Positions 20,994 through 43,199 of a DNA stretch of 51,850 nucleotides are shown piece by piece. The translations under genes were made by a program, and so were the position numbers. The stretch is from positions 13,556 through 65,405 of the forward strand of contig CAZTIH010000001.1 in the NCBI GenBank assembly GCA_964613675.1. Direction: 5' to 3'. Under the pieces are notes generated by a model. It searched no databases and was not told the DNA's origin. It saw only the letters and a list, made by a program, of their open reading frames with translations. Each line of letters opens with the position of its first letter. Position 1 is the first letter of the stretch. Origin of the DNA: an uncultured Candidatus Competibacteraceae bacterium. GTDB taxonomy: Bacteria > Pseudomonadota > Gammaproteobacteria > Competibacterales > Competibacteraceae.

Positions 20994-23183
20994 GTGCTCT
21001 CTCTTGTTCCCCTGGTTTTTCTATTTGTTTCTGCAACGGTTTACGGCCTTGATATAGAAGCCCGCCGCGTAGATTTTCAAATGCTTCAAGCCCAACCCAT
21101 AGGCGCAAACATTCAATTAAGACACCTCTCTCTTGATCCCCGTTTTCCCGTCGTCGATCTAGAACTTGAACGATTTTCTGTCTTTGCTGAGGACGCCAAA
21201 ATCACTGTTCACGGCGACCAGGGATCGACTGAAGTCCGTTCTCCTCCCAACATCGCAACCTATCGCGGAAAAATTCGGGGGAACGATGCTTCACATGCTT
21301 TCATCATCACGGACGAAAAAGGCGATTGGCGCGGGATCATTGGGCGTGCCGACGGGGTTTATGTGTTGGAGAAGTCAGCTACCCGTCCCAATGCACAGCC
21401 CTTAGCACGTCGAACCCAATCCCGAGATTTTGAAGGCCGTAACTTCCAATGCGGGTTGGATGAACTCAACGCTTTACAGGGAGTTGATGCTCCTCACGAT
21501 CATGACCACGCCCCTGACTTTAAGATGGGATTTGCAGATCTTTATAAATCTATTCCCGAGTTGGGCGCGGTTACAGGGAATGGGGTCACTTATAAGGTGC
21601 GCGTTGCCATCGAGACCGATCATGAGTTTTTTCAGCTCTTCAATAACACCACCGCAGCGACAAATTACATTGCAAGTCTGATGGGCTATCTCTCGACGAT
21701 CTATCAGAACCAGGTAAATACCGTTCTTGAAGTTGGCGATGTGTCTTTGTGGCAGACAGCGAATGATCCGTGGAATCAAACGGGTTCTACAAACTGTGCA
21801 CTGTATGAATTTGGTCTGTATTGGAACACTAATCGTCAGAATGTGAATCGCACTCTCGTACATTTTCTAAGCGGTAAAGCGCTCGGGGGCGGAGTCGCTT
21901 GGTTAGAAGGGCTATGCGCAAGGCCTCAAATCTTCAACATTTCAAATTGCCCTGGTTTGCCCGCTCAAGGTCTGTTTTATGGCGATTACGGCTTAAGTGC
22001 AGATATAACTGGCGCCTTTAGTCCGAATAATCCGCAAGTCATTTGGGATACTTCGGTCGTAGCCCATGAAATTGGTCACAATTTTAACTCGCCCCATACG
22101 CATTGTTACGCGGGCATAGGGGGCAATTCGCTTCCCGTCGACGGTTGCTATAACCGTGAATCGGATTGCTATTCGGGTTCTGAAAGTTTTCCCGGACCAG
22201 GGAGCTTAACGGGGGGAAGTCCTGGAGGTGGGACAGGCTCGATTATGAGTTACTGCCACTTGCTCGAGGGAGGAAATAGCAATATCACGCTGTCTTTTGG
22301 ACACAACTTCAACTTTGGCGTAGCTCCCGAACGGGTTCCGCAACGAATGCGCGCTTTTGTCGAGCAAACGGCGGCCCAGTATCCTAGCTGCATTGTACCC
22401 GCCACCACGACACCGCCCCCTCCCCCACCTGCCCAAACCGGGGTAGCGTTAGTTGAGATTTATCAAGTCGGTAGCTCGGGAAAAATTTCGGCTATTTCGA
22501 CAAGAGGGATTGTGCAGACGGGTAACGATGTGTTGATTGGCGGGTTTATTCTCGAACAAACAACCACCGTTGCCGTGCGTGCAAAAGGGCCAAGCATGAC
22601 GGCGGTGACGGGGCGTTTGGCTGATCCGACTTTAGAGCTGGTTTATATGGCTTCTGATCAACGGGTTTTTAATGACGATTGGAACAGCGATTCCCAAGCT
22701 AACGCCCTATCTGCAGCAAACCTTGCGCCCACAAGTAATCCGGAGGCAGCGCTATTCAGAACCTTAGCGCCGGGGGGGTACACGGGCATCGTGCGGGGAT
22801 TTCAAAACGCTACCGGGATTGGTCTAGTAGAAGTTTACGAATCTGGAAATAGCGGTAAAATTTCTGCGATCTCTACGCGCGCCTTAGTTGAAACAGGCGA
22901 CCGTGTCATGATTGGCGGCTTTGTGCTTGCGGAAACGACGACGGTTGCCATCCGTGCGGCAGGCCCCTCGTTACCCGATAGTATTGCGAACCGTTTAGCC
23001 GATCCCCAGCTCGAATTAGTGTATGCCGCCACCAGTCAACGGGAAACCAATGATAATTGGCGTACTGATTCTCGTGCAGCGGAACTTGCCAACGCAAATC
23101 AGGCGCCGAGCAACGATCTCGAAGCCGCACTGCTACGCACTTTACCGCCCGGGGCTTATACCGTGATCGTAAGCGGTAAATAA
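20994..23183 (+). CDS. secreted zinc metalloprotease (reprolysin/metzincin-like) with duplicated C-terminal domain
   Basis: 729 aa. It has a signal peptide (MLSLVPLVFLFVSATVYG), an HEIGHNFNSPH zinc motif, a TTTPPPPPPAQT linker, then two ~123-aa homologous domains. Confidence 0.7.
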   Translation: MLSLVPLVFLFVSATVYGLDIEARRVDFQMLQAQPIGANIQLRHLSLDPRFPVVDLELERFSVFAEDAKITVHGDQGSTEVRSPPNIATYRGKIRGNDASHAFIITDEKGDWRGIIGRADGVYVLEKSATRPNAQPLARRTQSRDFEGRNFQCGLDELNALQGVDAPHDHDHAPDFKMGFADLYKSIPELGAVTGNGVTYKVRVAIETDHEFFQLFNNTTAATNYIASLMGYLSTIYQNQVNTVLEVGDVSLWQTANDPWNQTGSTNCALYEFGLYWNTNRQNVNRTLVHFLSGKALGGGVAWLEGLCARPQIFNISNCPGLPAQGLFYGDYGLSADITGAFSPNNPQVIWDTSVVAHEIGHNFNSPHTHCYAGIGGNSLPVDGCYNRESDCYSGSESFPGPGSLTGGSPGGGTGSIMSYCHLLEGGNSNITLSFGHNFNFGVAPERVPQRMRAFVEQTAAQYPSCIVPATTTPPPPPPAQTGVALVEIYQVGSSGKISAISTRGIVQTGNDVLIGGFILEQTTTVAVRAKGPSMTAVTGRLADPTLELVYMASDQRVFNDDWNSDSQANALSAANLAPTSNPEAALFRTLAPGGYTGIVRGFQNATGIGLVEVYESGNSGKISAISTRALVETGDRVMIGGFVLAETTTVAIRAAGPSLPDSIANRLADPQLELVYAATSQRETNDNWRTDSRAAELANANQAPSNDLEAALLRTLPPGAYTVIVSGK
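22440..23180 (+). repeat. intragenic tandem duplication: two ~123-aa domains (22440..22814 and 22815..23180)
   Basis: The two copies align by eye: G.(A/G)LVE(I/V)Y..G.SGKISAISTR..V.TG..V.IGGF.L..TTTVA.RA.GPS......RLADP.LELVY......ND.W..DS.A..L...N.AP....EAAL.RTL.PG.YT.IV.G. Confidence 0.85.
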
Positions 23184-27072: not shown

Positions 27073-27094
27073 TTTTTAACAAAAAATAGACTGA

Positions 27095-27121
27095 AAGCCG
27101 ATACTAAATCGGCTTTTTTTG
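27095..27121 (+). terminator. rho-independent terminator of maeB
   Basis: AAGCCGAT-actaa-ATCGGCTT 8-bp stem followed by a T7 run. Confidence 0.7.
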
Positions 27122-27405
27122 TGCCCTGAAATCATCGTTTTCAATTAAAAAACTGGGTGGTACGAAATAACCACATCATTTTTTTTATTTTATGACAGTA
27201 GCATGTACGATTATTGCATAAAAAAATTTTTTAATTCACATTTTATTTTGAAATTCAAGAATGCTTGTAAAACAAATATTTCAAATAAAAAGTTGTCCAT
27301 AATAAAATAGTAACGGAATTGTTATTTTTTAATAAGCTATTGATTTAAAACAAATATTTAAGTGTGTAATTTTTAATTTAACAAATGTATTAAACAAACA
27401 ACATA
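27121..27405. other. extremely AT-rich tract (candidate DNA-unwinding region)
   Basis: About 285 bp that is AT-dominated by eye. It contains an exact 14-nt direct repeat, TAAAACAAATATTT, at 27268..27281 and 27346..27359. It has no credible ORF and lies between two gene 3' ends. Confidence 0.5.
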
Positions 27406-27947
27406 TGTTGGCTTTGCGCCCGCGTTACAAAATAAAAGTGCCTGCACTGGTTATTTTTCGATAGGGGGTATTTTTTCCGAATAACGAGAATTTTATTGCA
27501 TAAAGTTTAGAAATACCCCTTTGAGGTTGGCTTTGCGCCCACCAAGGTTGGCTCGACGCCCACCAGTGTTGGCTTTGCGCCCACCGCAAAAGTTTGGGGA
27601 AAAACTTAACTTATTGATTTTACGTGTTTTGAAAAAGTCAAGGTTGGCTTTGCGCCCACCCTAAAATGGTCATATTTCTTTACAAAGCTTGCTAAGTTAT
27701 TGATTTATTTTTCACATGTTGCAGTAAATACCCCCTCATGTAAAGCATTTGTAACGCGATAAAAACCCCCCTTAGTTTGAAAAAAATGCCTAAATCAAAA
27801 TGATACAAGGGGGGCAAATTAGTGGCCGCTAAGCCAACCCTATTATTAAATGACATAAAATTTCGTGAAATCTCGTCTATATTTGGTGGGCGCAAAGCCA
27901 ACCTTTCAAAAAAAATTTCTTAAAAAACTATATAAATCAATGAATTA
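27334..27947. promoter_or_regulatory. four IHF-consensus (WATCAANNNNTTR) sites sharing a (T/C)TATTGATTT core
   Basis: The copies are 27334..27346 aagctattgattt, 27608..27620 aacttattgattt, 27694..27706 aagttattgattt (these three match IHF on the minus strand: AATCAA-N4-TTA) and 27934..27947 AAATCAATGAATTA (plus strand). Confidence 0.4.
27406..27660 (+). repeat. iteron-like 19-bp repeats, forward set (5 copies)
   Basis: Consensus GGTTGGCTTTGCGCCCACC. Copies start at 27406 (16/19), 27525 (19/19), 27546 (16/19, centre TCGAC), 27567 (18/19) and 27642 (19/19). The three middle copies are exactly 21 bp apart. Confidence 0.85.
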
Positions 27948-27970
27948 TAGCGGTGTGCGCAAAGCCAACC
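27821..27970 (-). repeat. iteron-like 19-bp repeats, inverted set (3 copies)
   Basis: The plus strand reads GGTGGGCGCAAAGCCAACC. Copies start at 27821 (16/19), 27885 (19/19) and 27952 (18/19). The hexamer GTTGGC is invariant in all 8 copies. Confidence 0.8.
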
Positions 27971-28026
27971 TTGACAGTAAAAATTTTTACTGAAACATCT
28001 TGACTAAATTTTTTTTTTAATATACC

Positions 28027-28060
28027 AACTAAAATAGTCGGTTTTATATTTATAACCGAC
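28027..28060 (-). terminator. possible terminator of mnmE
   Basis: GTCGGTT-N10-AACCGAC inverted repeat (28037..28060). On the minus strand it is followed by TATTTTAGTT. It lies about 45 nt past the mnmE stop. Confidence 0.4.
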
Positions 28061-28102
28061 CTAAAAACCCTAAAATGTAATTTTTTAATAAAATCAATTT
28101 TT

Positions 28103-29473
28103 TCACTTTCCAATGCAAAATGTCGAAAAGATTCGCCCTAACAGCTCGTCACTCGTTAGTTTTCCGGTAATTTCGCCTAATGCGTCGTGGGAAAGACGTA
28201 ATTCTTCCGCCAATAATTCAGGACAATTCACTTGCCCATTTTCAATGGCTGCTAGCAAATGAATTTCAGCCTGATTTAGCGCATTCAAATGACGTTGTCG
28301 GGCGATAAATGCACCTTCGTGGGGTTCGTAATGGAGTACCTGCTTAATTTGGGTGTACAACAAATCCATGCCATTCCCCGTTTTGGCAGAAAGCCAAATC
28401 ACGACTCGCTCACCGTCCGTTTCACATCTAGGCGACTGCTCGATTAAATCGACCTTGTTTTGGACGATTAACACGGGAATTGGCCTTGTAAGTTCCGCAA
28501 GTAACGATGCCTCAAACTCCCCTATACCCGTTCGGGCATCACAAACCACGATGAGTAAGTCCGCCCGCTCGATCTCTTGGTAGGCGCGTCGCATCCCTTC
28601 TTGTTCGATCTCATCTTCACTGTGTCGTAGCCCCGCGGTATCGCACAAATGGACAGGCATCCCCTCTACTTGGATGTCCGCTCGCAAAATATCTCGTGTC
28701 GTACCTGGGATCGCGCTAACAATAGCCGTGTCTTGTCCAGTTAATTCATTGATTAAACTGGATTTTCCTACATTTGGCTGACCGATGATCGCTAGGTTAA
28801 ATCCATCGCGTAGCAACTGCCCCTGCCGTGTTTGCTGTTTTAACGCCACAAATTCGTTGGCAAGTTCTCGTAATTTCTCGTGAATCGCTGCCTCATTTAA
28901 GAAGTCGATTTCTTCTTCAGCAAAATCCAAAGCTGCTTCAACATACATCCTTAGATAAATAATTTTTTCAGATAAATTATTGATTTTTTTAGAAAACATA
29001 CCTTGTAATGAATTAGTTGCTGCATGTGCAGCCTGTTCCGTGCGACTGGCAATCAAATCTGCAATGGCTTCTGCTTGCGTTAAATCTAGCTTCCCATTAA
29101 GGAACGCTCGTTCGGAAAATTCGCCGGGTCTCGCTAAACGTGCGCCTAATTCGATTGCCCGATGAAGTAATAGATTGAGTGCAATAGGACTGCCATGGAT
29201 TTGTAATTCTAAAACCGCTTCTCCGGTAAATGAATTAGGGGCGGGAAAATACAAAACTAATCCAGTGTCAATCAGCTGCTTTTGCCGATCGTAAAAGCGT
29301 TTATAAGTCGCCATTCTGGGCGTCGGAATAACACCAATTAACTGCGTCGCGATCTGTTCTACTGTCGGCCCAGATAGCCGCAAAATGCCGACTCCACCTC
29401 GTCCTGGTGGAGTCGCAATTGCAATAATAGTGTCAGTTTTAGAAGAAAGAGAATCAATATGAATTGAGGTCAC
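28103..29473 (-). CDS. mnmE: tRNA modification GTPase MnmE
   Basis: 456 aa. It has the IATPPGRGGVGILRLSG N-terminus, the G-domain GQPNVGKSSL / DTAGLR, and the C-terminal FCIGK. Confidence 0.95.
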   Translation of the reverse strand: MTSIHIDSLSSKTDTIIAIATPPGRGGVGILRLSGPTVEQIATQLIGVIPTPRMATYKRFYDRQKQLIDTGLVLYFPAPNSFTGEAVLELQIHGSPIALNLLLHRAIELGARLARPGEFSERAFLNGKLDLTQAEAIADLIASRTEQAAHAATNSLQGMFSKKINNLSEKIIYLRMYVEAALDFAEEEIDFLNEAAIHEKLRELANEFVALKQQTRQGQLLRDGFNLAIIGQPNVGKSSLINELTGQDTAIVSAIPGTTRDILRADIQVEGMPVHLCDTAGLRHSEDEIEQEGMRRAYQEIERADLLIVVCDARTGIGEFEASLLAELTRPIPVLIVQNKVDLIEQSPRCETDGERVVIWLSAKTGNGMDLLYTQIKQVLHYEPHEGAFIARQRHLNALNQAEIHLLAAIENGQVNCPELLAEELRLSHDALGEITGKLTSDELLGRIFSTFCIGK

Positions 29474-29474
29474 G

Positions 29475-31148
29475 TTACGGGGATTTAGTGGCTTTTATTA
29501 GCCCTTTATTATCCTCCGCTTCGACTCGTTTCGTAATCACATATTGCTGGGCGATAGATACACAGTTATTAACTGCCCAATAAAGCACTAATCCCGCAGG
29601 AAACCACAAGAAAAAGACCGTAAACATCACGGGTAAAAACATCATGACCTTGGCTTGTATCGGATCGGGCGGCGGTGGACTCAACCACTGCTGTACAAAC
29701 ATCGATCCCCCCATAATCAACGGCAAAATGTACAGGGGATCTTTAATCGACAAGTCTTCAATCCAACCAATCCACGGCGCTTGACGCAGTTCTACGCTTT
29801 CCACGAGCACCCAATACAGCGCGATAAATACGGGAATTTGCACCAAAATCGGCAAACATCCCCCTAATGGATTGATTTTTTCCTTGCGATACATCGCCAT
29901 TAGTTCTTGGTTCATCTTCTGAGGATCACTCCCGTACCGCTCCTTCAACTGCTGCATCAACGGCGCGACCTTACGCATCTTCGCCATAGATCGATAACTC
30001 GTTTCAGATAATTTGTAGAACGCTAACTTGATGAGTAGCGTCAAAATAATGATCGCCCATCCCCAATTTCCCACATAACTATAAATCCAATTGAGCGCCC
30101 AAAATAACGGCTGCGAAATGAACGATAACCACCCATAATCCACAGTTAAATCGAGATGTGGCGCGATTTTGGCCAAGTCCGCTTGGATTTTCGGGCCGGC
30201 GTACAGGATTGACCGCACCTGTATCGTTTCCTCGGGGGCCGCCTGCATAGATGGGCTCACCATCCCCAAAACAAAGCGATCATTCCCCACATTTCGGCTG
30301 TAAAAGTGATTGATCTGCGCCTGATGGTCGGGCACGAGCGCCGCTAAAAAGTAGTGCTGAATCATCGCCAACCAGCCCCCACTCACCTCGCGTTCCAGAT
30401 TGCGGGACACCATGTCATCAAAGGAAATTTTCTCATACACCCGTTCAGGCGTTGAAATTACGCCCCCGGTATAGGTGTAAACGGCAAATGCGGAGAGGTT
30501 ATTCGTCGCTCGACTACGCTGGATTTGTCGATAGAAAGTCCCTGCCCAAGGAGTGGGCGATTGATTGCGTAATTGCTGAACTAATTCAATATCAAATCGC
30601 CCGCGATGAAATACATAAGTTTTAATGACTTCAATACCGCTTTCATCCCGCCAAACCAGTGGGACTTCTAAAGTGTTTTCTCCATCTTTCAACACATACT
30701 CGGTCTGGGCACTCGAATAAACTTGATAATGGTCAGGGGCGGGGTGATGAGTTGACAATAAACCGCTTTGTACGACAAATAACTCGCGATCATCGTGCAG
30801 TAATGCAAAAGGCGTCGGGTCTTGTAACGAATTAGGATGGGTTCGCAAACCTAAGCGCCGTAGATCTCCCCCAAGGGTGTCGATTTCTGCAACAAAAATA
30901 TCGGTTTTAACCATAATTCGGTCACTGCGTTCGAGCACCCCACGATTGACCTCTGGAAGCGATAAATTCGGCGAACGCTCACTTTCAGGGGTTGCGCGTT
31001 CCGGTAATGAGGGCAATGAAGGCCGCAAATCGCTTTCCGTCTGCGAAACCAAGGCCCTCAGTTGGGTTTGATCTTGTACCCAAGCCTGCCAAATCAATAG
31101 CAACACCATTGATAATGCAATGATGAAGAAAATGCGTTGGTTTTCCAT
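29475..31148 (-). CDS. yidC: membrane protein insertase YidC
   Basis: 557 aa. It has an N-terminal TM helix, a large periplasmic domain and the conserved C-terminal 5-TM core (PLGGCLPILVQIPVFIALY). Confidence 0.95.
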   Translation of the reverse strand: MENQRIFFIIALSMVLLLIWQAWVQDQTQLRALVSQTESDLRPSLPSLPERATPESERSPNLSLPEVNRGVLERSDRIMVKTDIFVAEIDTLGGDLRRLGLRTHPNSLQDPTPFALLHDDRELFVVQSGLLSTHHPAPDHYQVYSSAQTEYVLKDGENTLEVPLVWRDESGIEVIKTYVFHRGRFDIELVQQLRNQSPTPWAGTFYRQIQRSRATNNLSAFAVYTYTGGVISTPERVYEKISFDDMVSRNLEREVSGGWLAMIQHYFLAALVPDHQAQINHFYSRNVGNDRFVLGMVSPSMQAAPEETIQVRSILYAGPKIQADLAKIAPHLDLTVDYGWLSFISQPLFWALNWIYSYVGNWGWAIIILTLLIKLAFYKLSETSYRSMAKMRKVAPLMQQLKERYGSDPQKMNQELMAMYRKEKINPLGGCLPILVQIPVFIALYWVLVESVELRQAPWIGWIEDLSIKDPLYILPLIMGGSMFVQQWLSPPPPDPIQAKVMMFLPVMFTVFFLWFPAGLVLYWAVNNCVSIAQQYVITKRVEAEDNKGLIKATKSP

Positions 31149-31194
31149 TAAAACCTCAGATGGATTGAAAAAGCGGCGCAGTATAAAACTGGGG

Positions 31195-31557
31195 TTATTT
31201 TTCGGGGGTTACGGGCGGTAATGATGGCTTAAGCTGCGCCCAATGCTGCGCTAGTGCAGCGGTCAACTCGGCATTTGTCCGCGCAATGGCAGCGGGCCGA
31301 CTCATGACGACAATATCCCATCCGTTAATTTTTGCTTGATGAGCACGAAAACTCTCGCGAATCAATCGTTTAAGTCGATTGCGAACGACTGCCGATTTGG
31401 AGACTTTCCGCGAAATGGCTAGCCCAAGCCGACTCATCGTTAGGTCGTTGCGGCGGGCTAGCACACTGAAATGGGAATCCTGAAAACGGAGCGGTTTATC
31501 AAAAACAAATTGAAATTCAGCGGCCTTTAACAGGCGCGACGAACGCGGAAACTTCAA
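31195..31557 (-). CDS. rnpA: ribonuclease P protein component
   Basis: 120 aa. It has the RNR motif (AVVRNRLKRLIRE) and lies between rpmH and yidC. Confidence 0.9.
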   Translation of the reverse strand: MKFPRSSRLLKAAEFQFVFDKPLRFQDSHFSVLARRNDLTMSRLGLAISRKVSKSAVVRNRLKRLIRESFRAHQAKINGWDIVVMSRPAAIARTNAELTAALAQHWAQLKPSLPPVTPEK

Positions 31558-31576
31558 TCAATTCAACAATTTTGAT

Positions 31577-31711
31577 TTAGACAGCTAACCGCTTACGACC
31601 CCGCTTACGACGGGCATTAAGAACGAGACGCCCCCCCCGAGTGGACATGCGGGCGCGGAAGCCGTGGGTGCGTTTACGACTGAGAATGCTGGGTTGGAAA
31701 GTACGTTTCAT
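31577..31711 (-). CDS. rpmH: 50S ribosomal protein L34
   Basis: Not in the ORF track because it is under 60 aa. Hand translation of the minus strand gives [44 protein letters not shown] (44 aa), the canonical L34 sequence. Confidence 0.95.
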
Positions 31712-31851
31712 GGATCGCCTACAAAATTACGAAAAAAGGCCATGAAATTAACGAGACGCATGAATTTCTGTCAAGTTTGCGGTGGTCAATGGCAAGTGCG
31801 CTCCGTAATATCGGCCGCTTTTTTTCACTCAAACTGTCAGAGGTGACTCTA

Positions 31852-33174
31852 ATGGATTCCCCCGTGTGGCGGCGTTGTCTTCCGCAATTGGAACGCCTTG
31901 TTTCCCCTCAAGATTTTCAAACTTGGATACGACCTCTGCAATGCAAGGAAACGCCAAAGAAGCTCAGCTTATTAGCCCCTAACCGCTTTATTTTTGTTGA
32001 GGTACAGCAACGATTTCTCGAAATAATTCAAAAGGTTGCCAACGAAATTAGCCCTCAGCACACACTTAATCTCGATCTCAGCGGTCAGCGCAATTCTATT
32101 GAAGCGGGTCACAACAATCCGAACCTCACTTTGCCCCTTGAGGAAGGTCAACGCAGCAGCAATCTCAATAAAAATTACACTTTCGATTCGTTTGTGGAAG
32201 GCAAATCCAATCAACTTGCGCTAGCTGCTTGCCATCAGGTCGCCCGCAATCCAGGTAAAGCCTACAACCCGCTTTTCATTTATGGAGGCACGGGGCTTGG
32301 CAAAACTCACTTAATGCACGCCGTCGGAAACATATTACGCCAGCGCAAAAGTCAAGCCCGAGTGGTTTATCAGCATTCCGAACACTTTGTGAGTGACATG
32401 GTGCTTGCCCTTCAGCACAACGCGATTGGGGATTTCAAACGTTATTACCGCAGCCTCGACGCGCTGCTCATCGACGATATTCAGTTTTTGTCTGGCAAAG
32501 AACATTCTCAGGAAGAATTTTTCCATACTTTCAATAACTTACTTGAGGGACAGCAACAGGTTATTTTGACATGTGACCGTGTTCCCAAGGAAGTCGTGGG
32601 ACTGGAAGATCGTTTGAAATCGCGCTTTGGTTCTGGGCTGACCGTCGCCATCGAACCTCCAGACTTAGAAACGCGGGTGGCGATCCTCAAAGCCAAAGCC
32701 GCTCAAGCTGATCTAGCGCTTACCGACGAGATCGGCTTTTTTATCGCGAAACGGGTGCGTTCCAATGTGCGCGAACTTGAGGGGGCCCTACGCCGTGTGT
32801 ACGCCCAAATCCAATTCACTCAGCAGCCACTCACCCTCTCGCTAGTCCGCGAAGCCTTGAGCGATTTAATGCCCACTAGCGATCAGCAAGTGACGATTGA
32901 GACCATTCAAAAATCCGTTGCGAATTACTACCGAATTAGCGTTAACGACTTAATGGCGGATAGCCGTGTGCGATTAATTGCCCGCCGCCGTCAATTAGCT
33001 ATGGCATTAGCTAAAGAATTAACAGATCACAGTTTGCCAGAAATCGCGGAGGCTTTTGGAAAGCGTGATCACACCACGGTTTTGCACGCATGTCGTCAAA
33101 TAGACAAATTACGCAAGTTGGATTTGGAGTTAAATGACGACTACATCACTTTATTGACTTCAATAACCTTATAA
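31852..33174 (+). CDS. dnaA: chromosomal replication initiator protein DnaA
   Basis: It has the AAA+ motif GGTGLGKTHL, the domain IV KRDHTTVLHA, and other DnaA features. The start is placed at ATG 31852 (MDSPVWRRCL...), with GAGGTG 8 nt upstream. The track start at 31777 adds 25 non-conserved residues. Confidence 0.95.
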   Translation: MDSPVWRRCLPQLERLVSPQDFQTWIRPLQCKETPKKLSLLAPNRFIFVEVQQRFLEIIQKVANEISPQHTLNLDLSGQRNSIEAGHNNPNLTLPLEEGQRSSNLNKNYTFDSFVEGKSNQLALAACHQVARNPGKAYNPLFIYGGTGLGKTHLMHAVGNILRQRKSQARVVYQHSEHFVSDMVLALQHNAIGDFKRYYRSLDALLIDDIQFLSGKEHSQEEFFHTFNNLLEGQQQVILTCDRVPKEVVGLEDRLKSRFGSGLTVAIEPPDLETRVAILKAKAAQADLALTDEIGFFIAKRVRSNVRELEGALRRVYAQIQFTQQPLTLSLVREALSDLMPTSDQQVTIETIQKSVANYYRISVNDLMADSRVRLIARRRQLAMALAKELTDHSLPEIAEAFGKRDHTTVLHACRQIDKLRKLDLELNDDYITLLTSITL

Positions 33175-33283
33175 ACCGTATCAGTTTCAAAATAACCTGA
33201 CACCCACCATTAACTTGTTGTTACAAACAACTTACTGATTTAATTGAAATTTCATATCGTGAAATGCGTTTCATTCATTTTCC

Positions 33284-33383
33284 TGTGGATAAGTGCCTGT
33301 AATCCTGTGGATAAGTCTGTGGATAACTCCTGTGGATAAGTCTGTGGATAAGTACAGGCAAAAGGGCAAATTTCTGTGGATAA
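33284..33383 (-). promoter_or_regulatory. oriC DnaA-box array A: six perfect boxes, plus strand reads TGTGGATAA
   Basis: There are exact 9-mers at 33284, 33306, 33318, 33331, 33343 and 33375 (start coordinates). Confidence 0.9.
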
Positions 33384-33412
33384 CTCCAAAAGTTACGATT
33401 TGCCCAGAAAAG

Positions 33413-33543
33413 TTATCCACAACGTTATCCACAGAAATTCCCGACTTATCCACAGAAAAGGCCAATTCTATCCACAGGCATTTTTCGACCTAACTTATTG
33501 TTTTAACTGACAATGACATCGACTTATCCACAGGTTATCCACA
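33413..33543 (+). promoter_or_regulatory. oriC DnaA-box array B: six boxes, plus strand reads TTATCCACA
   Basis: There are exact 9-mers at 33413, 33425, 33446, 33524 and 33535, plus CTATCCACA at 33468. Confidence 0.9.
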
Positions 33544-33555
33544 GAATTCGGCCCC

Positions 33556-33598
33556 TTAATAACTATAATCTTTTTTAAAAATTCTTTTTTGTTAAAAA
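33556..33598. other. AT-rich tract next to the last DnaA-box pair (candidate oriC DUE)
   Basis: ttaataactataatcttttttaaaaattcttttttgttaaaaa lies immediately after gaattc-GGCCCC, which follows the box pair at 33524/33535. Confidence 0.5.
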
Positions 33599-33620
33599 CC
33601 GCGTGTGAGGTCCAAACCCG

Positions 33621-34727
33621 ATGAAGATCCAAACAACCCGTGAGCTATTACTCACTCCGTTGCAAGTTGTAGTTGGCGTTGTCGAGAAAAGACAAACCAT
33701 GCCCATCCTCAGTCATGTCCTCCTTACCCCTACCAAGAAAGGGGTCACCTTCACGACCAGTGATCTGGAAGTCGAACTCTGTGTGCTAACCGATCTGCCA
33801 CCGATCCAATCTCCCCTCGCGCTTCCCGCCCGCAAATTGCTCGACATCCTCAAAGCACTGAGTGCAGATAACGCGGCGGTTTCTCTCATGGTGGAGGCCG
33901 ATCGAGTGACCGTGCGGAGCGGAAAAAGCCGATTTACCTTGACGACGCTTGCCGCTGAGGACTTTCCCCATGCCCAAATCCCTGAAAAATGGGATGCTCA
34001 AATCACCTTGTCGCAACAGGGATTACGCCAGTTAATCGAACGAAGTCAGTTTGCGATGGCTCAACAGGATGTCCGTTATTATCTCAATGGACTGCTTTTA
34101 GAACTGTCTTCAGAAGCTATTCGGGCTGTCGCAACCGATGGCCACCGTTTGGCGTGTACCCAGTTACAAGAATCCGCACCCCTCGAAACCCCTCAGCAAG
34201 TCATCGTGCCGCGCAAGGGAGTGTTGGAACTTCTGCGGTTGCTCAAAGATGACGAAGCATCGGTCACGCTCTGTTTGGGACGAAATCAATTGCAAGCCCA
34301 ACTCGAAAATTTGCAATTCACCACAAAGCTAGTGGATGGCAAGTTTCCAGACTATCAACGGGTCATTCCGCAAGATCCGCCGTTGAGCGTGATCGTGGAT
34401 CGCAGACTGCTAAAAGAAACGCTCAATCGGGTGGCGGTCGTGTCCAGCGATAAGCAACATCGTGGGGTTAAGCTGTCGTTTAACGCCCATTCGATGCGTA
34501 TTCAGGCGCAGGGAAGCGAACACGACGAGGCTGAAGACGAAATCGAAATCGACTACAGCGGGGAGACATTGGAGATGGCGTTCAATGTAAGTTTTCTGAT
34601 CGAAGCCTTGAGCGCGTTGAGTGGCGATCAGATTCGTATTGGGTTGACAGATGTGCATAGCAGCGCGTTGTTGCGGGAGCTTGAGAACGACGATTGTCGA
34701 TTTGTCGTCATGCCCATGAGATTATAA
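33621..34727 (+). CDS. dnaN: DNA polymerase III subunit beta (sliding clamp)
   Basis: 368 aa. It has the typical N-terminus (LLTPLQVVVGVVEKRQTMPILSHVLL) and C-terminus (VVMPMRL). Confidence 0.95.
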   Translation: MKIQTTRELLLTPLQVVVGVVEKRQTMPILSHVLLTPTKKGVTFTTSDLEVELCVLTDLPPIQSPLALPARKLLDILKALSADNAAVSLMVEADRVTVRSGKSRFTLTTLAAEDFPHAQIPEKWDAQITLSQQGLRQLIERSQFAMAQQDVRYYLNGLLLELSSEAIRAVATDGHRLACTQLQESAPLETPQQVIVPRKGVLELLRLLKDDEASVTLCLGRNQLQAQLENLQFTTKLVDGKFPDYQRVIPQDPPLSVIVDRRLLKETLNRVAVVSSDKQHRGVKLSFNAHSMRIQAQGSEHDEAEDEIEIDYSGETLEMAFNVSFLIEALSALSGDQIRIGLTDVHSSALLRELENDDCRFVVMPMRL

Positions 34728-34751
34728 CCATCTGTTTTTAAGAGATATTTT

Positions 34752-35825
34752 GTGCTGACAGCGCTCTCCATTGAAAATTTTCGCAACTTGCAGAGCGTCA
34801 CATTCACGCCAGGCGAGGGCCTCAATCTGATTTGCGGACCCAATGCGGCGGGTAAAACCAGCCTGTTAGAAGCGATTTATCTTCTTGGACGAGCGCGGTC
34901 GTTCAGAACAAACCGTTGGAATCATTTGGTAGAACGGGAAAAAACAGCTTTTCAGCTCGTCGCGACCCTTGCCTACCCTCGCACTATTACCCTAGGTATG
35001 AAACGCGCTCACAGCGGCTGGGAGGTGCGTTACGATGGCAATCCCGTGACGACCCTCACCGATTTAGCTCATTGTTTTCCGGTTCTCTTACTCAATCCCG
35101 ACAGTCATCGGCTAATCGAGGGCAGTCCTTCTATTCGTCGCAGATTTCTGGATTGGGGGCTGTTTTACTTCGATAAAGAGTTCTTAAACGCTTGGCGAAG
35201 GTGGTCTCTGGCATTGCGACAGCGGAATGAGATGCTGCGAGCGGGGGGATCGGATCGACAGTTAGCGGTTTGGGAAAAAACGCTCGTTGTCACTGCCCTC
35301 GACCTAGATAAGCGGCGACAAACCTTCGCAGACCGCCTGAGCGCAGTTCTAAGCAATTGGATTGGGTTGACCCTAGGTGAGCTAGAGGTCTCGATGGAAT
35401 ATCGCCGTGGATGGCCTTTAGAGGCCGATCTGGGGGAATTATTGGCGGCGAGTCGCGGGCAAGATCGGCGTTTCGGTTACACCCGTTCGGGGCCGCAACG
35501 GGCTGATTTAGGGCTACGAATCGGCGGTCGGAATGCTTCGGAAGTTCTATCCAGAGGACAGCAAAAGTTGTTTGCAGCAGCGTTAGTTCTGGCCCAAGCG
35601 GCATTGTGCGAGCGTCACAGCGGATTGCCCTGTGTGATCTTAGTCGATGATTTGCCCGCAGAGCTTGATTCAGACAGTCGTAGAGATCTGTTGAGTGCGT
35701 TGAGTCGTTTAGGGGGGCAGCGTTTCATCACGGCAGTTGATCCTGATGCGCTAGACCTTGTTGCAGAGGGCAGTTTGATGACGAAATTTCGATTAAAAGC
35801 AGGTGAATTATCGCCAGTGTTATAA
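34752..35825 (+). CDS. recF: DNA replication and repair protein RecF
   Basis: 357 aa with a GTG start. It has the Walker A GPNAAGKTSLLEAIY and the signature LSRGQQKL. Confidence 0.9.
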   Translation: MLTALSIENFRNLQSVTFTPGEGLNLICGPNAAGKTSLLEAIYLLGRARSFRTNRWNHLVEREKTAFQLVATLAYPRTITLGMKRAHSGWEVRYDGNPVTTLTDLAHCFPVLLLNPDSHRLIEGSPSIRRRFLDWGLFYFDKEFLNAWRRWSLALRQRNEMLRAGGSDRQLAVWEKTLVVTALDLDKRRQTFADRLSAVLSNWIGLTLGELEVSMEYRRGWPLEADLGELLAASRGQDRRFGYTRSGPQRADLGLRIGGRNASEVLSRGQQKLFAAALVLAQAALCERHSGLPCVILVDDLPAELDSDSRRDLLSALSRLGGQRFITAVDPDALDLVAEGSLMTKFRLKAGELSPVL

Positions 35826-35850
35826 TTCCGAACTTCTACAAATTGCCTGA

Positions 35851-38268
<2,418 letters not shown>

Positions 38269-38449
38269 TGGAGCGATTCTCCTTGGGCCTGCGCGAGCGG
38301 GCTTCGCGGTTTGGGCAACAAGCAGATAACAAAGGAAGTGATTCAGCCATGAGAGATGGCTCAGATGCTTGAAGCTCCTACCCAAGTTCAGTAAACGCGA
38401 AATTTCCGTATATCTGCTATAGTTCCTAAGCAATCTCAAATAGCGTTAT

Positions 38450-38477
38450 TAAAGTCGTCGAACTTTCCCGTCGATAA
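38450..38477 (+). promoter_or_regulatory. sigma-28 (FliA)-like promoter upstream of flgM
   Basis: The element reads TAAA-N16-GTCGATAA, against the consensus TAAA-N15-GCCGATAA. The -10 element ends 40 nt before the ATG at 38518. Confidence 0.4.
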
Positions 38478-38517
38478 GGTTTACTTAGCGTTAAATACGG
38501 TTTCGGAGCCTCATGCC

Positions 38518-38787
38518 ATGACCATTCGCATTCCTGAGGGTGGGCCGCCACCCCGTCCCATCTTCACCGCTTCAGCGGCGCGGACCAGCACAATTACGGC
38601 ACCCGCTACCGTCCAGCTCAGTAGTGATGTCCGCCATTTGCAACAAGTTCAGCAACAACTTGTGCAGGAGGAGAGTGTGAATAACCGTCGCATAGCAGAA
38701 CTTCAACGAGCAATAGATAATGGTACCTATCGGGTTGATAGTCGCCAACTTGCTGAAAAACTTGCAAACTTTGAGAACAATCTTTAG
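38518..38787 (+). CDS. flgM: anti-sigma-28 factor FlgM-like protein
   Basis: 89 aa. It has a disordered N-terminal half. The C-terminal RIAELQRAIDNGTYRVDSRQLAEKL matches the FlgM signature (K/R.. L.. AI..G.Y.VD...IA.KL). Confidence 0.7.
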   Translation: MTIRIPEGGPPPRPIFTASAARTSTITAPATVQLSSDVRHLQQVQQQLVQEESVNNRRIAELQRAIDNGTYRVDSRQLAEKLANFENNL

Positions 38788-39767
38788 CGCGTGCCAGCGA
38801 GTTTGGGGACGGTAAGTTCCACGAGCAGCTCGTCGGTCTTATCCATTTTCCAGCAATTCAGAACACCTACAGTTTGCAACTCATCAAGTGCCCCTTTGAG
38901 CGTTCTGCGCCATTCTTTGGGCTGTGCCGATGAACCACAGAGTTGTTGTAGTGCGAGAACCGAAACGCAGTGAGTGCCATCGCTTTGGCTTGCAAAATAG
39001 CCATGTAACCAACGGGAAACATCTTTTTTAAGTTGTCGTCGTGTTTCCCAATCGATGGGGATACTTCCGTCTGCAAACAACTTTATTAACTTGGGATTTA
39101 ATGTTAAGGCATAACGCTCTAGTGCGCGATCGCGGTAAAAATCCAGTAAATTTCCAATGTAATCAAAGCGATCTGTCGAAATGTGCAGGGCACAGGCGAC
39201 CATTCGCGTTAGAGATTCGTTAAGTCGTTGATGATGATCTTTTCCCTTTGGACTTCGGCCTATCGCTTGCAAAAAACCGTAAGCACTGAACTCCGCTTTT
39301 ACGCCCAATCCACCATTTTGTTTTGCAATATCAATGGCTTGTAGCCAAATATCGAGATCAAATTGATCAAGTTGTGTCCCTGTAAAAGTAAGCGTAAACC
39401 CCGGCAAAGCGGCAATCGGATGCTGTTGAAATTGGCGTCGTTGCCCACGGGGCATGATTCCAAACAGTGCTGAACGTAACAGACATGCAGGCGCTAATCG
39501 CTGTACACCTGGCGTCCAAAGTTGTGGAAAGGCCAATTCTGGAGAGGTGGGAGGGGGTTCTAAACCCGTTAATAAATCACCCCGCAGAGGCTCTGATGGG
39601 GGCCGCGATTTAGGGAGTTGAGGGGCGTCAAAAACAAGCGGTATCTGGGGCGGATGAGAAATCTGTTGACGACGCAGTTGGTCGCGCCGTCGCATCTGCT
39701 CCAAAAGTTCTGCTGGAGTCGTAATCGACCTTTTAGGGGGAGGTGGCATGAGAACGCTTGTGCTCAA
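38784..39767 (-). CDS. TrfA-family plasmid-type replication initiator protein
   Basis: 327 aa. It is collinear with TrfA blocks as recalled from RK2: LRSALF, FTGTQLDQFDLDIWLQA, FSAYGFLQAIGRS, SLTRM, DFYRD, LTLNPKLIKLF, IDWETRRQL, WLHGYF, LQQLCGS, LKGALDELQTVG. The track start is a TTG at 39767, and the alternative ATG at 39749 would give MPPPPKRS... Confidence 0.8.
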   Translation of the reverse strand: MSTSVLMPPPPKRSITTPAELLEQMRRRDQLRRQQISHPPQIPLVFDAPQLPKSRPPSEPLRGDLLTGLEPPPTSPELAFPQLWTPGVQRLAPACLLRSALFGIMPRGQRRQFQQHPIAALPGFTLTFTGTQLDQFDLDIWLQAIDIAKQNGGLGVKAEFSAYGFLQAIGRSPKGKDHHQRLNESLTRMVACALHISTDRFDYIGNLLDFYRDRALERYALTLNPKLIKLFADGSIPIDWETRRQLKKDVSRWLHGYFASQSDGTHCVSVLALQQLCGSSAQPKEWRRTLKGALDELQTVGVLNCWKMDKTDELLVELTVPKLAGTR

Positions 39768-39774
39768 AAGAGGT

Positions 39775-42513
39775 TTAACGATTCTGTAGATCGTGGCGTT
39801 GTAGAAAAGTCTGTTGACCTGGGATTTCGACGGTTCCGACCGTAGCGAGACAACTTTCGATCTCCGTGGGGCTCACTGCCCGCACAAAAACCCGTTTACC
39901 CTTAATAATACCCGTAAATTCAAGCTGGATAGCCGCTAATTCTCGATCTCCTTGAGTGAGTTCACCCGTCAACGCTTGTGGAGAAGCTGTGTAGAAAAGA
40001 TTAAAGATACCATCCCTTGGAACCCCTAACTCTTCCCATTTCCCATATTCTCCCCCTTGCCGAATCATGGGTTCAAACTTTCGCAATTTCAGATATCCGA
40101 CGAAGAATTGGAAAGGTGCTTCACATTCAGTCTTGGAATAATTGACGATTTTAATCGGTTCGCCAGGGCAAAGTCGCAGTAACCCTAATGCAACTCCCGT
40201 TTTAGCAGTGGGTTTGTAGAAATTTTCTTTGTCAATCTGAAGCGGTAAATGCACCTCAAATCCCATAGGGAAATCATCTAAAAGCTGTTCTAGAAACGCG
40301 TTAATGCGTTCTTCTAAGGTTTCTCGTCGCAAATCTTCAGTGTTTTTAACCACGGGCTTGATGGGTGAGGATTTCTTGCCGAAAATTTCTGTAATGAAGG
40401 GGGAACGACTGCCGTTTCCTGCTAACAGAACATGAACTTTTCGCGGACGATAAGGGGTCGCTAAAAAAGCCGTCTTCAGGCTCGTGTAAAAATTTCGTAC
40501 CCCCATCTCTAGTCGGGTTTCTAAGTAGTGACGGATTCGGGCGCGAGGGAGAATCAGTTCACAATTTTTCCGCAACCCCTCTCGACTTAAGAGTTCTATA
40601 GCGATCGGGCCTTCATCAGAGAGTTCTGCACCTTCCCAAAATTTTCTTAGCCGACTCACTAACATCACCATATTCGTGATCGCTGCTTGGGTTTTTTCTA
40701 GGAAAAGTTCACTCCCCGGAAAATCTTCGGCATCGATTGGCTTTTGAAAAGAAATCTGATGACGACGACAAATTTCGAGATTTCGAGGTTCCTTAAAAAC
40801 CAGATAAGCCATGTTTTCCAAGATATTTTCGCCCCCTAAAAATTTATCCCCTGAGGCTCCAAAATGTTCGATAACCGCTTCATAGCCTTCCTCTGCCTCT
40901 TCTTCGTCTGCTAAACGATAAATTCCAAAATCAAAATCTGTTGTCCCTCCCCCAAAATCAAAGACTCCATAGGCCTGCCCTTCTTCTGTAGGGGTGATTT
41001 TTAAAGTATCTAAAGCAGCGATAGCATAAGCAGCGGGTTCCGATGCGCGCTCTTCCACGGAGAATCGCTTGAGAACTTCGGTATTGGTTGTTATGGATTG
41101 GGGCAAGCTGCGTTGCAATCCGCGATGGAAAGAAGCCAAAATTTTTTCTTTCACGGTTTGCGGATAGGCAACGGGGAAAGTCATGTAATAACGGGTAAAA
41201 ATCCCCCTTTGACGCCAATTGATCACCATTCCCAAGTAGTAAGCATAGACTTCTACAGGATCGAATAGATCGTTCTGAGAGACGATTATTGGTGTACCTT
41301 TTGACGGTGGCCTCAAAGTTAAAGGGTCAATGCGATATTCGTAACCTTTTGATTGATCTGTAAAACTTACCTGCAGATCTTGCTCGCTTCTCAGCGCCCA
41401 TTGCTTTAACCGAAGCAGAACACTGCCAACAATACGAACATCTCCTTGATTATCCCGCAGATGATTTAACGCTTCGTGAGAGGCTTTGACATCTGTCCAT
41501 TGCGTTAACGGACGATAGGCCATCGACTGCCAAGGGAGCAAAAATCTTTGAAAATCAATAAATTCTAAAACCGTTGGATTTTCATAATGTTTTGCTTCTG
41601 CCGGCGCCCAATAATCGTGAACGCCGATACGTAGCAGTCGATCTTGGCCATTTTCCCGATAAGCAACCACGGTGCTACTGGTACCGAAGTCAATTGTGAC
41701 AAACCCCTTTTGCACATCGAGATTCGGATCGCGGCCTCTTAACAACTCATCTATTTCTAAAGAAATTCGCTCTTTTTCCGAAAATCCATCGCCATGAAGC
41801 TCCCATAAACCTTTTGCAGGATCAGTGATTTGCGAAGGTTCGAGCTCGGGTAACTTCACGCTTTGCGAATCAATTTTTTTAAACGCCTGCTTCAAAAACG
41901 AAGCGGTCAAGCACTTCTGATTGCCACTTAAGAAAGACTTAGCCCGTTGGTAATCACCCCGTAGCTGTTGCATCAGATCCGCTGTTAGATGCTTTCCAGT
42001 ATGCGATCTCAATGACCATCCCCGTTGCAGACATTCGTCAATGACGGCTTTCGCATTGTTTTGTGTTGGAAAAGGGCGGGTTACAAGCACACATCCTGGC
42101 CATTCTTTATGGCCTTTCAGATCGTCTAAGTTGAGTCCCCCCGCCGTAGTGAGAAAACATTCTTGTACATTTCTGATGCGGTAGTTAGGGCCTTCTCTTA
42201 GAGGAAATTGATTCTGAACGACATTTACTAAGTAGCTCGCTTCGGGAAGTTGCCAACTATCTAAGCCACTGATTTTTATCTGAGAAATCGGGGATTTACT
42301 TTGCTGAAGCGAACAGGCGGTATTGGCAAAGTCTTTCTGCCATAGCCAAAAGCAGTCCCGATCCAAAATCATTGATTCTTCCTTCCCGTCAAACACCCAC
42401 CACCAGCGGTTGGGCGCATTATTAAAGGTTTCCAATACCATCCTTAGAATGTCATCAGCCCGATGTTTAACAATCCCCATCAGAAGTGATCGAGAGGAGG
42501 TGATTTTTGCCAT
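39775..42513 (-). CDS. divergent Hsp70/actin-fold ATPase with ~270-aa N-terminal and ~170-aa C-terminal unassigned regions
   Basis: 912 aa. It has Hsp70 NBD motifs in the canonical order: VTIDFGTSSTVVAY (phosphate-1), SEPAAYAIAA, GVFDFGGGTTDFDFGI (phosphate-2), LGGENILENM, VHVLLAGNGSRSPFI (adenosine). No canonical DnaK substrate-binding domain or EEVD tail is recognisable. Confidence 0.75.
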   Translation of the reverse strand: MAKITSSRSLLMGIVKHRADDILRMVLETFNNAPNRWWWVFDGKEESMILDRDCFWLWQKDFANTACSLQQSKSPISQIKISGLDSWQLPEASYLVNVVQNQFPLREGPNYRIRNVQECFLTTAGGLNLDDLKGHKEWPGCVLVTRPFPTQNNAKAVIDECLQRGWSLRSHTGKHLTADLMQQLRGDYQRAKSFLSGNQKCLTASFLKQAFKKIDSQSVKLPELEPSQITDPAKGLWELHGDGFSEKERISLEIDELLRGRDPNLDVQKGFVTIDFGTSSTVVAYRENGQDRLLRIGVHDYWAPAEAKHYENPTVLEFIDFQRFLLPWQSMAYRPLTQWTDVKASHEALNHLRDNQGDVRIVGSVLLRLKQWALRSEQDLQVSFTDQSKGYEYRIDPLTLRPPSKGTPIIVSQNDLFDPVEVYAYYLGMVINWRQRGIFTRYYMTFPVAYPQTVKEKILASFHRGLQRSLPQSITTNTEVLKRFSVEERASEPAAYAIAALDTLKITPTEEGQAYGVFDFGGGTTDFDFGIYRLADEEEAEEGYEAVIEHFGASGDKFLGGENILENMAYLVFKEPRNLEICRRHQISFQKPIDAEDFPGSELFLEKTQAAITNMVMLVSRLRKFWEGAELSDEGPIAIELLSREGLRKNCELILPRARIRHYLETRLEMGVRNFYTSLKTAFLATPYRPRKVHVLLAGNGSRSPFITEIFGKKSSPIKPVVKNTEDLRRETLEERINAFLEQLLDDFPMGFEVHLPLQIDKENFYKPTAKTGVALGLLRLCPGEPIKIVNYSKTECEAPFQFFVGYLKLRKFEPMIRQGGEYGKWEELGVPRDGIFNLFYTASPQALTGELTQGDRELAAIQLEFTGIIKGKRVFVRAVSPTEIESCLATVGTVEIPGQQTFLQRHDLQNR

Positions 42514-42533
42514 CAGAATTTCTTAATCGTCGA

Positions 42534-43199
42534 TTAGCGGATTTTAACAAGCGGTTTCTGCACAACTTCTCCATTCGCATCTTTCAGACCAGATAGCAAC
42601 ATCATTTCAACAGTTTCGCCCGCATCCTCAGAATAACGACCTGTCTGGTGTATTTCGTGGTCGAAAGGAGTATTCGGAAAAACAATAATTTCTTCTGCTT
42701 GTAAGTCTTGCAGTGAATAATTATGAAGCTTAAGACAGCCCTTTAAGACCTGATTTTGTTCTACAGAAATGGGTTTTTCATGTTCTTTACAGTGATTTGC
42801 CATCTCGCGCCATAACATCGCAATAGACTTCCACTGGGTCGCACGCGATAGAAATCGTTGTAGTAACTCACCTTCGTCAGAGACTTCTGTATCGCCTAAG
42901 AGAATTCGTTTCAACAAATTATCTGTTCGCGTAGTCGCTAACCATTGCAGCGGATTTCTGAGTTGTACTCTCAGGGGGTCTGTCAAGCTGCTTTTAGCCG
43001 CAATAGGGGGCACTTCTGTCGGTAGAATCTTTGATTTTGACTGACTTTCAGAAATACTTGCCGCCCCCTCAAAATCCTGAGGATTCCGAACTGCATCGGC
43101 GATTAGTTTGGCAAATGCCGTGCGAAATTCCTTGTCTTCCTGAATTAAATTAAGCAACTGTTGTTTGTCGATTTGTATGGGGAGTAGCATCTGAAACAT
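42534..43199 (-). CDS. GrpE-like putative nucleotide-exchange factor (tentative)
   Basis: 221 aa. It has a good RBS (AGGAAA 8 nt upstream). The C-terminus FPNTPFDHEIHQTGRYSEDAGETVEMMLLSGLKDANGEVVQKPLVKI resembles the GrpE beta-domain pattern G..FDP..H.A......G.V..V...GY.....V.RPA.V.V. The N-terminal part is not obviously GrpE-like. Confidence 0.4.
   Translation of the reverse strand: MFQMLLPIQIDKQQLLNLIQEDKEFRTAFAKLIADAVRNPQDFEGAASISESQSKSKILPTEVPPIAAKSSLTDPLRVQLRNPLQWLATTRTDNLLKRILLGDTEVSDEGELLQRFLSRATQWKSIAMLWREMANHCKEHEKPISVEQNQVLKGCLKLHNYSLQDLQAEEIIVFPNTPFDHEIHQTGRYSEDAGETVEMMLLSGLKDANGEVVQKPLVKIR

Follow-up and report, generated by a model that had tools for sequence, protein, structure and literature searches.

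The stretch of DNA analysed here, referred to as the window, comprises 51,850 nucleotides of an uncultured Candidatus Competibacteraceae bacterium (assembly GCA_964613675.1, contig CAZTIH010000001.1, positions 13,556 to 65,405 of the forward strand) and contains two loci of the kind found in plasmid replicons: an array of eight 19-bp repeats (iterons) in the gap between maeB and mnmE, and a gene for an initiator of the TrfA family. The last iteron lies 10.8 kb from the TrfA-like gene, and the two loci enclose a block of core genes whose identity was confirmed, namely mnmE, yidC, rnpA, rpmH (31577-31711, minus strand), dnaA, dnaN, recF and gyrB. A separate chromosomal origin (oriC) is located within this block, 5.3 kb from the iteron array. 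An original prediction, made from the letters of the sequence, had described this layout, with the loci about 11 kb apart and a canonical DnaA-box oriC between them, and had proposed that array and gene form a cognate pair acting in trans; the layout was reproduced here in full. The features concerned are listed below.

27190-27400, no strand: left AT-rich block, candidate DNA-unwinding element, 15-20% GC, containing AAACAAATATTT twice
27333-27947, no strand: span with four matches to the consensus WATCAANNNNTTR of integration host factor (IHF), starting at 27333 (minus), 27607 (minus), 27693 (minus) and 27935 (plus)
27406-27424, plus strand: iteron copy 1, TGTTGGCTTTGCGCCCGCG, three mismatches, a lone copy at the right margin of the left AT-rich block
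27525-27585, plus strand: three head-to-tail iterons starting at 27525, 27546 and 27567, spaced by exactly 21 bp, with 0, 3 and 1 mismatches
27642-27660, plus strand: iteron copy 5, exact
27821-27839, minus strand: iteron copy 6, inverted, three mismatches
27885-27903, minus strand: iteron copy 7, inverted, exact
27952-27970, minus strand: iteron copy 8, inverted, one mismatch
27970-28100, no strand: right AT-rich block, about 20% GC
33284-33543, no strand: canonical DnaA-box cluster of the separate oriC, between dnaA and dnaN, with 11 perfect copies of TTATCCACA and one copy with one mismatch
38784-39767, minus strand: TrfA-family initiator gene, 327 codons from a TTG; the probable start is the ATG at 39749, which would give 321 residues

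The gap that holds the array (27073-28102; 1,030 bp, 31% GC) is the largest and most AT-rich intergenic region of the window. Its flanking genes are convergent, with maeB (malic enzyme and PTA domains; plus strand) ending at 27072 and mnmE (minus strand) ending at 28103, and a gap between two 3' gene ends can serve neither of them as a promoter or operator. When the whole window was searched with the 19-mer GGTTGGCTTTGCGCCCACC, eight matches at up to three mismatches were obtained, all within 27406-27970; chance alone would give none, and 100 dinucleotide-preserving shuffles yielded no match at all. With a weight matrix derived from the eight copies, these score 24.7-31.5 bits, against 12.5 bits for the site ranked next in the window. 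Five copies are direct (plus strand) and three inverted (minus strand), and five of the eight GC-rich 19-mers remain within one mismatch of the consensus, even though they stand in 31% GC non-coding DNA. Each unit is an imperfect palindrome of arms GGTTGGC and GGTGGGC around a 5-nt centre. The left arm GTTGGC is present in all eight copies and the symmetric right arm GCCAAC in none; the right arm reads GCCCAC in six copies and GGCCAC and GCACAC in the remaining two. This fixed left/right asymmetry, as read from the copies, suits a directional two-domain Rep monomer better than a symmetric dimer.

The origin (oriV) of RK2/RP4 consists of short iterons in phased clusters beside an AT-rich unwinding element (PMC4980987). 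An origin of this type should carry at least three direct repeats of 17-22 bp, phased at about two helical turns, and the gap provides three at 21 bp together with five more copies. The AT-rich flanks with their repeated motif would, by composition only, also qualify as the unwinding element of an oriV. In addition, the four IHF-consensus matches in the gap compare with 0.17 expected and were equalled in none of 500 shuffles. All four sites share the longer motif TAAGTTATTGATTT; the three left-hand sites share one orientation and the single right-hand site has the opposite one, the same split as in the iterons. By these features the repeat locus is built like an iteron origin.

The same features can be read differently. 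As imperfect palindromes between convergent genes, accompanied by IHF-consensus sites, the GC-rich 19-mers could be palindromes resembling repetitive extragenic palindromes (REP) or bacterial interspersed mosaic elements (BIMEs), or else sites of an unrelated dimeric DNA-binding protein, instead of initiator sites; IHF-containing BIMEs occur in E. coli. Elements of this class would be dispersed, whereas the window's nine other intergenic regions of 100 bp or more lack any copy, even at five mismatches, and in the loci of a relative that carries the TrfA-like gene (about 40 kb, described below) only two five-mismatch matches were found, both inside genes. The head-to-tail phasing at 21 bp is unlike that of BIMEs, the asymmetry is fixed in all eight copies, and the stem would measure just 7 bp with one mismatch. 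As the 19-mer is missing from the other intergenic regions of the window and from the loci of the relative, this explanation was set aside for now and is considered distinctly improbable.

Other identities of the gap were tried and rejected. A hidden gene, pseudogene or RNA was discounted, since the gap contains no credible open reading frame (only short, low-complexity ones), no TrfA fragment detectable by tblastn and no Rfam family. A small integrated element with direct-repeat ends was likewise rejected, because the 17/19 repeat at 27317/28073 is not significant (13 of 200 shuffles). Two further observations concern the composition of this region. Six runs of 4-6 G (or C) are located in 27464-27814, where about one would be expected by a rough estimate; three of them, at 27464 (plus), 27516 (minus) and 27731 (minus), have GGGG(G)TATTT in common and make up a third repeat family, and a similar motif, TATCCCC, is contained in the Aeromonas TrfA iterons. 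The tetranucleotide GATC, which averages 4.4 per kb in the window, is absent from 27073-28102 and from the dnaA-dnaN region 33175-33620; with about 3 and 1.5 copies expected for gap and oriC, by our own estimate given their AT-richness, these absences are not significant.

The second locus encodes a protein that matches the Pfam profile TrfA (PF07042) with 51.6 bits against a cut-off of 22, over profile positions 44-272 of 282; the NCBIfam library returned no match for it. A tblastn search of PLSDB detected homologues in 445 plasmids, the best of which are 34-42% identical over 67-79% of the query and mostly bear the annotation plasmid replication initiator TrfA. Among 1.84 billion cluster representatives, searched exhaustively with HMMER, 1,995 family members were recovered, and the drop to a best identity of 44% beyond its own cluster indicates that the chromosomal clade is isolated within a large family. 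In an alignment of 13 sequences with plasmid TrfAs, 20 columns are invariant, all of them necessarily matched by the window protein, and these fall in the blocks LRSALFG and FTGxQLDQxDLDxW. The QLPLW or LPLW of plasmid homologues (compare the beta-clamp motif QLSLF of RK2) is replaced here by FPQLW, at a position that varies in bona fide TrfAs too. An AlphaFold2 model reaches a mean predicted local distance difference test score (pLDDT) of 70.6, with 80-90 in the core. TrfA-like initiators (PMC8034659) would be expected to have a conserved, extended N-terminal DNA-binding domain; here, roughly the first 85 residues are rich in proline and modelled as disordered, and profile positions 1-43 are unmatched. 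The best solved-structure matches of this model in Foldseek are all iteron-type initiators: RctB domains 2-3 (E 6e-9), RepE54 with iteron DNA (E about 2e-6), Rep with single-stranded DNA of an unwinding element, and TrfA with double-stranded DNA. The modelled core thus corresponds to the tandem winged-helix (WH1-WH2) fold of Rep proteins, and the product of 38784-39767 is, judged by its sequence, a true member of the TrfA family. Its gene is the only one of this family in the window and lies among housekeeping genes, not on a plasmid beside replicon functions. No integrase, partition or transfer gene was detected in the window, which otherwise holds housekeeping functions; because all of the surroundings are housekeeping genes, the arrangement is not a contiguous plasmid insertion, in agreement with the original prediction.

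If initiator and array belong together, the 19-mer should resemble the iterons of related initiators. The comparison set was made up of iterons that accompany trfA on plasmids with a TrfA related to the window protein.

Azotobacter chroococcum (HR1 unnamed4): CACGGGATAGCGCCCACCTCGG, five copies, abutting trfA
Aeromonas hydrophila (Ah2111 unnamed3): reverse complement AGGGGATAGCGCCCACC, 10 copies
A. salmonicida (pO23AP3): CACGGGGGATAGCACCCAC, about 10 copies, 1.7 kb from trfA
Janthinobacterium (pA12BJ1): CACGGCATTTGACCCAC, 5 + 4 copies in two variant arrays
Pantoea, Plautia and Arsenophonus: CACGGGATAGC followed by GGGTA, GGGTA and AGGTA, respectively, 6-9 copies
Nitrosococcus: a different iteron unit, six copies

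The 22-bp iterons of Azotobacter (CACGGGATAGCGCCCACC) and Aeromonas (AGGGGATAGCGCCCACC), from plasmids with TrfAs 36-42% identical to the window protein, both contain the exact 9-mer GCGCCCACC, which forms the 3' half of the 19-mer, at the same end of the unit. The skeleton GG..T.GCGCCCACC is shared more widely among the related iterons, and the Janthinobacterium unit CACGGCATTTGACCCAC has GGC..TTTG..CCCAC in common with the 19-mer. A shared 9-mer arose in 33 of 2,000 composition-matched shuffles of the 19-mer (p about 0.02). Taken together, the likeness to TrfA-family iterons is suggestive without being decisive. The plasmids of Azotobacter, Aeromonas, A. salmonicida and Janthinobacterium, with TrfAs 34-42% identical to the window protein, thus resemble the present system in carrying 4-10 copies with GCGCCCACC or ..CCCAC at the same unit end. 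They differ in that their iterons measure 20-23 bp, run in one orientation and lie 0-1.7 kb from trfA, whereas the array here is 10.8 kb from the gene on a chromosome and the 5' half reads GGTTGGCTTT as against CACGGGATA. As related plasmids have their iterons abutting trfA, 1.7 kb away (A. salmonicida) or not within 3 kb, separation of iterons and trfA is normal in the family. In the Methylocaldum and Fukatsuia plasmids, which encode close TrfA homologues, no TrfA-type iterons could be identified. The Methylocaldum szegediense plasmid MSZNORminor, which has one of the closest TrfA homologues, carries a long array of repeats with periods of 67 to 211 bp (L205 9914-10648; GGTCTTAATCCCTTCTTAATCAGGTCTCGTTTCAAAC...) and a separate repA.

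It is slightly more likely than not that the TrfA-like protein binds these 19-mers, because the sites contain a family-typical half-site, are directional, lie in an origin-like setting and are well preserved as GC-rich words in AT-rich non-coding DNA, and because the window has only one TrfA-family gene.

The history of the gene was traced in a second genome. A word-based search of 5.8 billion proteins returned one close relative of the TrfA-like protein, P0002, with 74% identity (81% in the core), which is encoded on two short contigs of metagenome-assembled genomes (MAGs; GCA_036846405.1 and GCA_964530395.1). Here, trfA and flgM are convergent and overlap by the same 4 bp (L001 1608-1611) as in the window, where flgM occupies 38518-38787 on the plus strand and meets the TrfA-like gene at 38784-38787. 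The other neighbours differ, in that flgM is followed by type III-B Cmr/RAMP genes instead of gyrB, and the place of p912, the gene directly upstream of trfA in the window, is taken by a divergent gene whose product is probably secreted. A 34-kb contig of the relative's MAG, reached through a search with MaeB, is syntenic with the window over UDP-glucose dehydrogenase, mpl, hsp33, phaR, phaB and parC up to maeB. Twelve protein comparisons between the two genomes range from 50 to 92% identity, with TrfA (74%) near the median: Hsp33 (50%), a 482-residue protein of unknown function (56%), MnmE (57%), M48 peptidase (61%), FlgM (63%) and ParC (68%) are less conserved, and Mpl (76%), a flavoprotein (81%), PhaB (86%), PhaR (88%) and MaeB (92%) more so. 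An earlier impression that TrfA is more conserved than housekeeping genes had been based on MnmE alone and was abandoned when the eleven further proteins were included. Between the two trfA genes, nonsynonymous divergence (dN) is 0.20, synonymous divergence (dS) is saturated, and the GC content of third codon positions (0.41 in the window, 0.72 in the relative) matches that of each host. Saturated synonymous sites, a low dN and host-matched third positions imply vertical inheritance under ordinary purifying selection, and these comparisons indicate that the gene is neither a recent transfer nor in decay. A candidate iteron-like operator upstream of the relative's trfA (GTTGGCGTGCCGCCACAC in L001) was discarded, as its score falls within the range of shuffles.

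The interpretation preferred here, at a probability of roughly 0.35, is that the two loci are the separated halves of an anciently captured and retained TrfA-type iteron replicon, which would act as an accessory origin-like element. In this scheme, an ancestral TrfA-type replicon would have entered the chromosome before the divergence of the two lineages. The gene for its initiator would have become fixed next to flgM, and in the present genome an iteron-bearing, origin-like segment lies at a rearrangement junction. The TrfA-like protein made from 38.8-39.8 kb may then bind the eight asymmetric 19-bp iterons in trans, as a monomer with two winged-helix domains. Bending by an IHF-type protein, together with the flanking DNA of 15-20% GC, could let the complex open the duplex, so that the gap would form an accessory TrfA-dependent origin-like element 5.3 kb from DnaA/oriC. 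It is doubtful that the iteron locus fires as an origin. In a more far-reaching version, held to be improbable, the lineage would run DnaA/oriC alongside a domesticated TrfA/iteron origin about 5 kb away, the latter as a backup or conditional origin whose position is tolerated or selected for keeping the replication arms balanced.

Several results weigh against the preferred interpretation. No operator-like copy of the 19-mer was found near the trfA-like gene at up to three mismatches or with the weight matrix, and neither search found any further site in the window, which bears out the statement of the original prediction that the repeat is not present beside the gene. The best ungapped match of the 19-mer to the related iterons (13/19) was attained in 138 of 2,000 shuffles (p about 0.07), so that the resemblance is modest. 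The span 27073-28102 contains no DnaA box at up to one mismatch, its two-mismatch matches being at chance level, whereas a box within one mismatch lies near the iterons in six of eight related plasmid origins examined, three of these boxes being perfect. In the relative, trfA-flgM is not beside gyrB, so the bracketing of oriC is not conserved; maeB is followed by a 134-bp spacer (L200 12278-12411), after which come genes for CCP_MauG, MbnP and a two-component system, just 9 bp separate mnmE from the unrelated gene next to it, and no iteron-like site was found in about 40 kb of this genome, whose fragmented assemblies could hold one elsewhere. A blastn search of the array against PLSDB plasmids gave only AT-rich chance matches, and 80 dnaN loci of gammaproteobacterial species representatives contain neither TrfA, p912, p221 (the gene accompanying p912) nor the repeat; these loci are too distant to inform on co-occurrence, the closest sharing only 47-51% DnaN identity. 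Across the metagenome, viral, plasmid and dnaN-locus searches, the array was found nowhere beyond this window. Single matches to an exact 17-mer number 88 among metagenome contigs and 13 among viral ones, which is consistent with chance, and among all fetched loci none holds an array, a second site being present in four (three of them from the metagenome and viral scans), at 3-4 mismatches only. The contigs of a MAG of the same species end inside mnmE and inside dnaA, before reaching the gap.

According to a second explanation, the two loci are unlinked leftovers: the gap would be debris from another plasmid integration, perhaps a later one, or from recombination at a rearrangement junction, and the TrfA-like protein would have another role or other sites elsewhere in the genome. 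Synteny with the relative stops exactly at the stop codon of maeB (window 27072/27073), which marks the gap as a rearrangement junction, and the relative has the gene without the gap at either flank. The likeness of the 19-mer to related plasmid iterons is moderate, and p912 and p221, upstream of trfA, are genome-specific and look accessory. Against unlinked leftovers stands the preservation of the array, with five of eight GC-rich 19-mers at most one mismatch from the consensus in AT-rich non-coding DNA. Moreover, the gap contains no TrfA pseudogene or plasmid gene remnant, integrase, partition and transfer genes are lacking from the window, and the GCGCCCACC half-site points to a binder of the TrfA family, of which the window has only one gene. 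This explanation is regarded as unlikely. The comparison with the relative also concerns the original prediction. Co-occurrence of gene and gap across relatives, proposed there as a check, was not borne out by the only gene-carrying relative, which has no iteron gap beside maeB or mnmE, and the bracketing of oriC is not a conserved arrangement, as the relative's trfA-flgM adjoins Cmr genes; this placement is peculiar to the present genome and probably arose incidentally through rearrangement, without being a design feature. The proposed cognate pair is supported in part: both parts have proved real, with origin anatomy and a shared GCGCCCACC, while the relative without the gap and the gap without a DnaA box speak against the pairing.

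The lack of a DnaA box and the mixture of direct and inverted copies make a role other than initiation nearly as likely as firing. A third explanation retains the cognate pair and denies it an origin: the iterons would be a titration, handcuffing or timing site, an incompatibility determinant against incoming TrfA-type plasmids, or a means of controlling a separate replicon. Known non-origin sites of this kind include incA of P1, incC of F, datA for DnaA and crtS for RctB. The mixed orientation resembles the control arrays of P1 and F, a gap without a DnaA box is unlike most of the related plasmid origins, and a gene conserved like an ordinary functional gene is expected to have some function. 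RctB also offers the precedent of an iteron-type initiator with a non-origin chromosomal site (PMC8565311, PMC4846446). On the other side, an array serving titration alone would not be expected to combine iterons phased at 21 bp with IHF sites and long AT-rich flanks, which are typical of an origin, and no second replicon is known for this organism, represented here by this window. A non-origin role is accordingly rated as rather unlikely.

For the accessory origin-like element favoured here, several known systems can serve as models. In RK2, trfA and oriV lie kilobases apart and TrfA acts in trans. This IncP-1 plasmid (RK2/RP4) is the closest mechanistic model, with an initiator of the same Pfam family, initiator gene and iterons kilobases apart, and phased iterons by AT-rich DNA; the 34-42% identity figures refer to other annotated plasmid TrfAs. 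It differs in three respects: the present gene resides in a chromosome and is inherited vertically, the iterons here measure 19 bp, are phased at 21 bp and are partly inverted, against a length of 17 bp in RK2, and the oriV of RK2 has DnaA boxes whereas none was detected in this gap. Replication of a chromosome from a plasmid origin is known as integrative suppression, in which F, R1 or R100 integrated in E. coli dnaA mutants drive chromosome replication. These cases involve laboratory selection and whole plasmids, while here an initiator gene and orphan iterons stand among core genes with dnaA and oriC intact. The usual view is that a bacterial chromosome fires from one DnaA-dependent origin; the exceptions known to us are laboratory integrative suppression and recent Vibrio chromosome fusions. 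In Vibrio cholerae strains NSCV1 and NSCV2, one chromosome contains ori1 as well as ori2 with RctB; both origins are active in one of the strains, whereas ori2 is silent in the second (PMC6284228). These strains represent the closest biological precedent, as DnaA/oriC and a plasmid-type iteron origin with its own initiator share one chromosome, and RctB domains 2-3 are the best structural match of the TrfA-like model. In contrast to the present case, the initiator belongs to another family, ori2 lies beside rctB and far from ori1, its activity was established by marker-frequency analysis, and the fusions are recent, whereas the gene described here has been resident long enough to match the composition of its host.

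Chromosomal TrfA-like annotations have been noticed before, with the question left open whether they are artefacts or products of recombination (PMC8034659). An intact, host-matched TrfA gene together with well-preserved orphan iterons by oriC would represent a natural chromosomal retention of plasmid replication machinery. If the pair is active, it would provide a system for studying the coexistence of two initiators a few kilobases apart; if inactive, it would be an ordinary integrated-plasmid remnant at a rearrangement junction.

The genes p912 and p221 (39775-43199, minus strand), encoding proteins of 912 and 221 residues, lie directly upstream of the trfA-like gene, p912 at a distance of 7 bp, and neither received a family assignment. 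The p912 product is 47% identical to a hypothetical protein of the Acinetobacter piscicola plasmid pYH12207-1, where ATP-binding, HEPN, dynamin-family and integrase genes are its neighbours, and shows marginal Hsp70-like similarity over residues 490-597. Both genes were considered as partners of TrfA and rejected, since neither adjoins the relative's trfA and the plasmid homologue of p912 lies among HEPN, dynamin-family and ATPase genes; they probably constitute an accessory, defence-island-like insertion. A further difference between the two genomes is found upstream of maeB, where the window carries a gene for an M12B reprolysin-like metalloprotease of 729 residues (20994-23183, plus strand) between parC and the gene of the 482-residue protein. 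This gene is missing from the collinear block of the relative (L200), which points to a lineage-specific insertion or loss.

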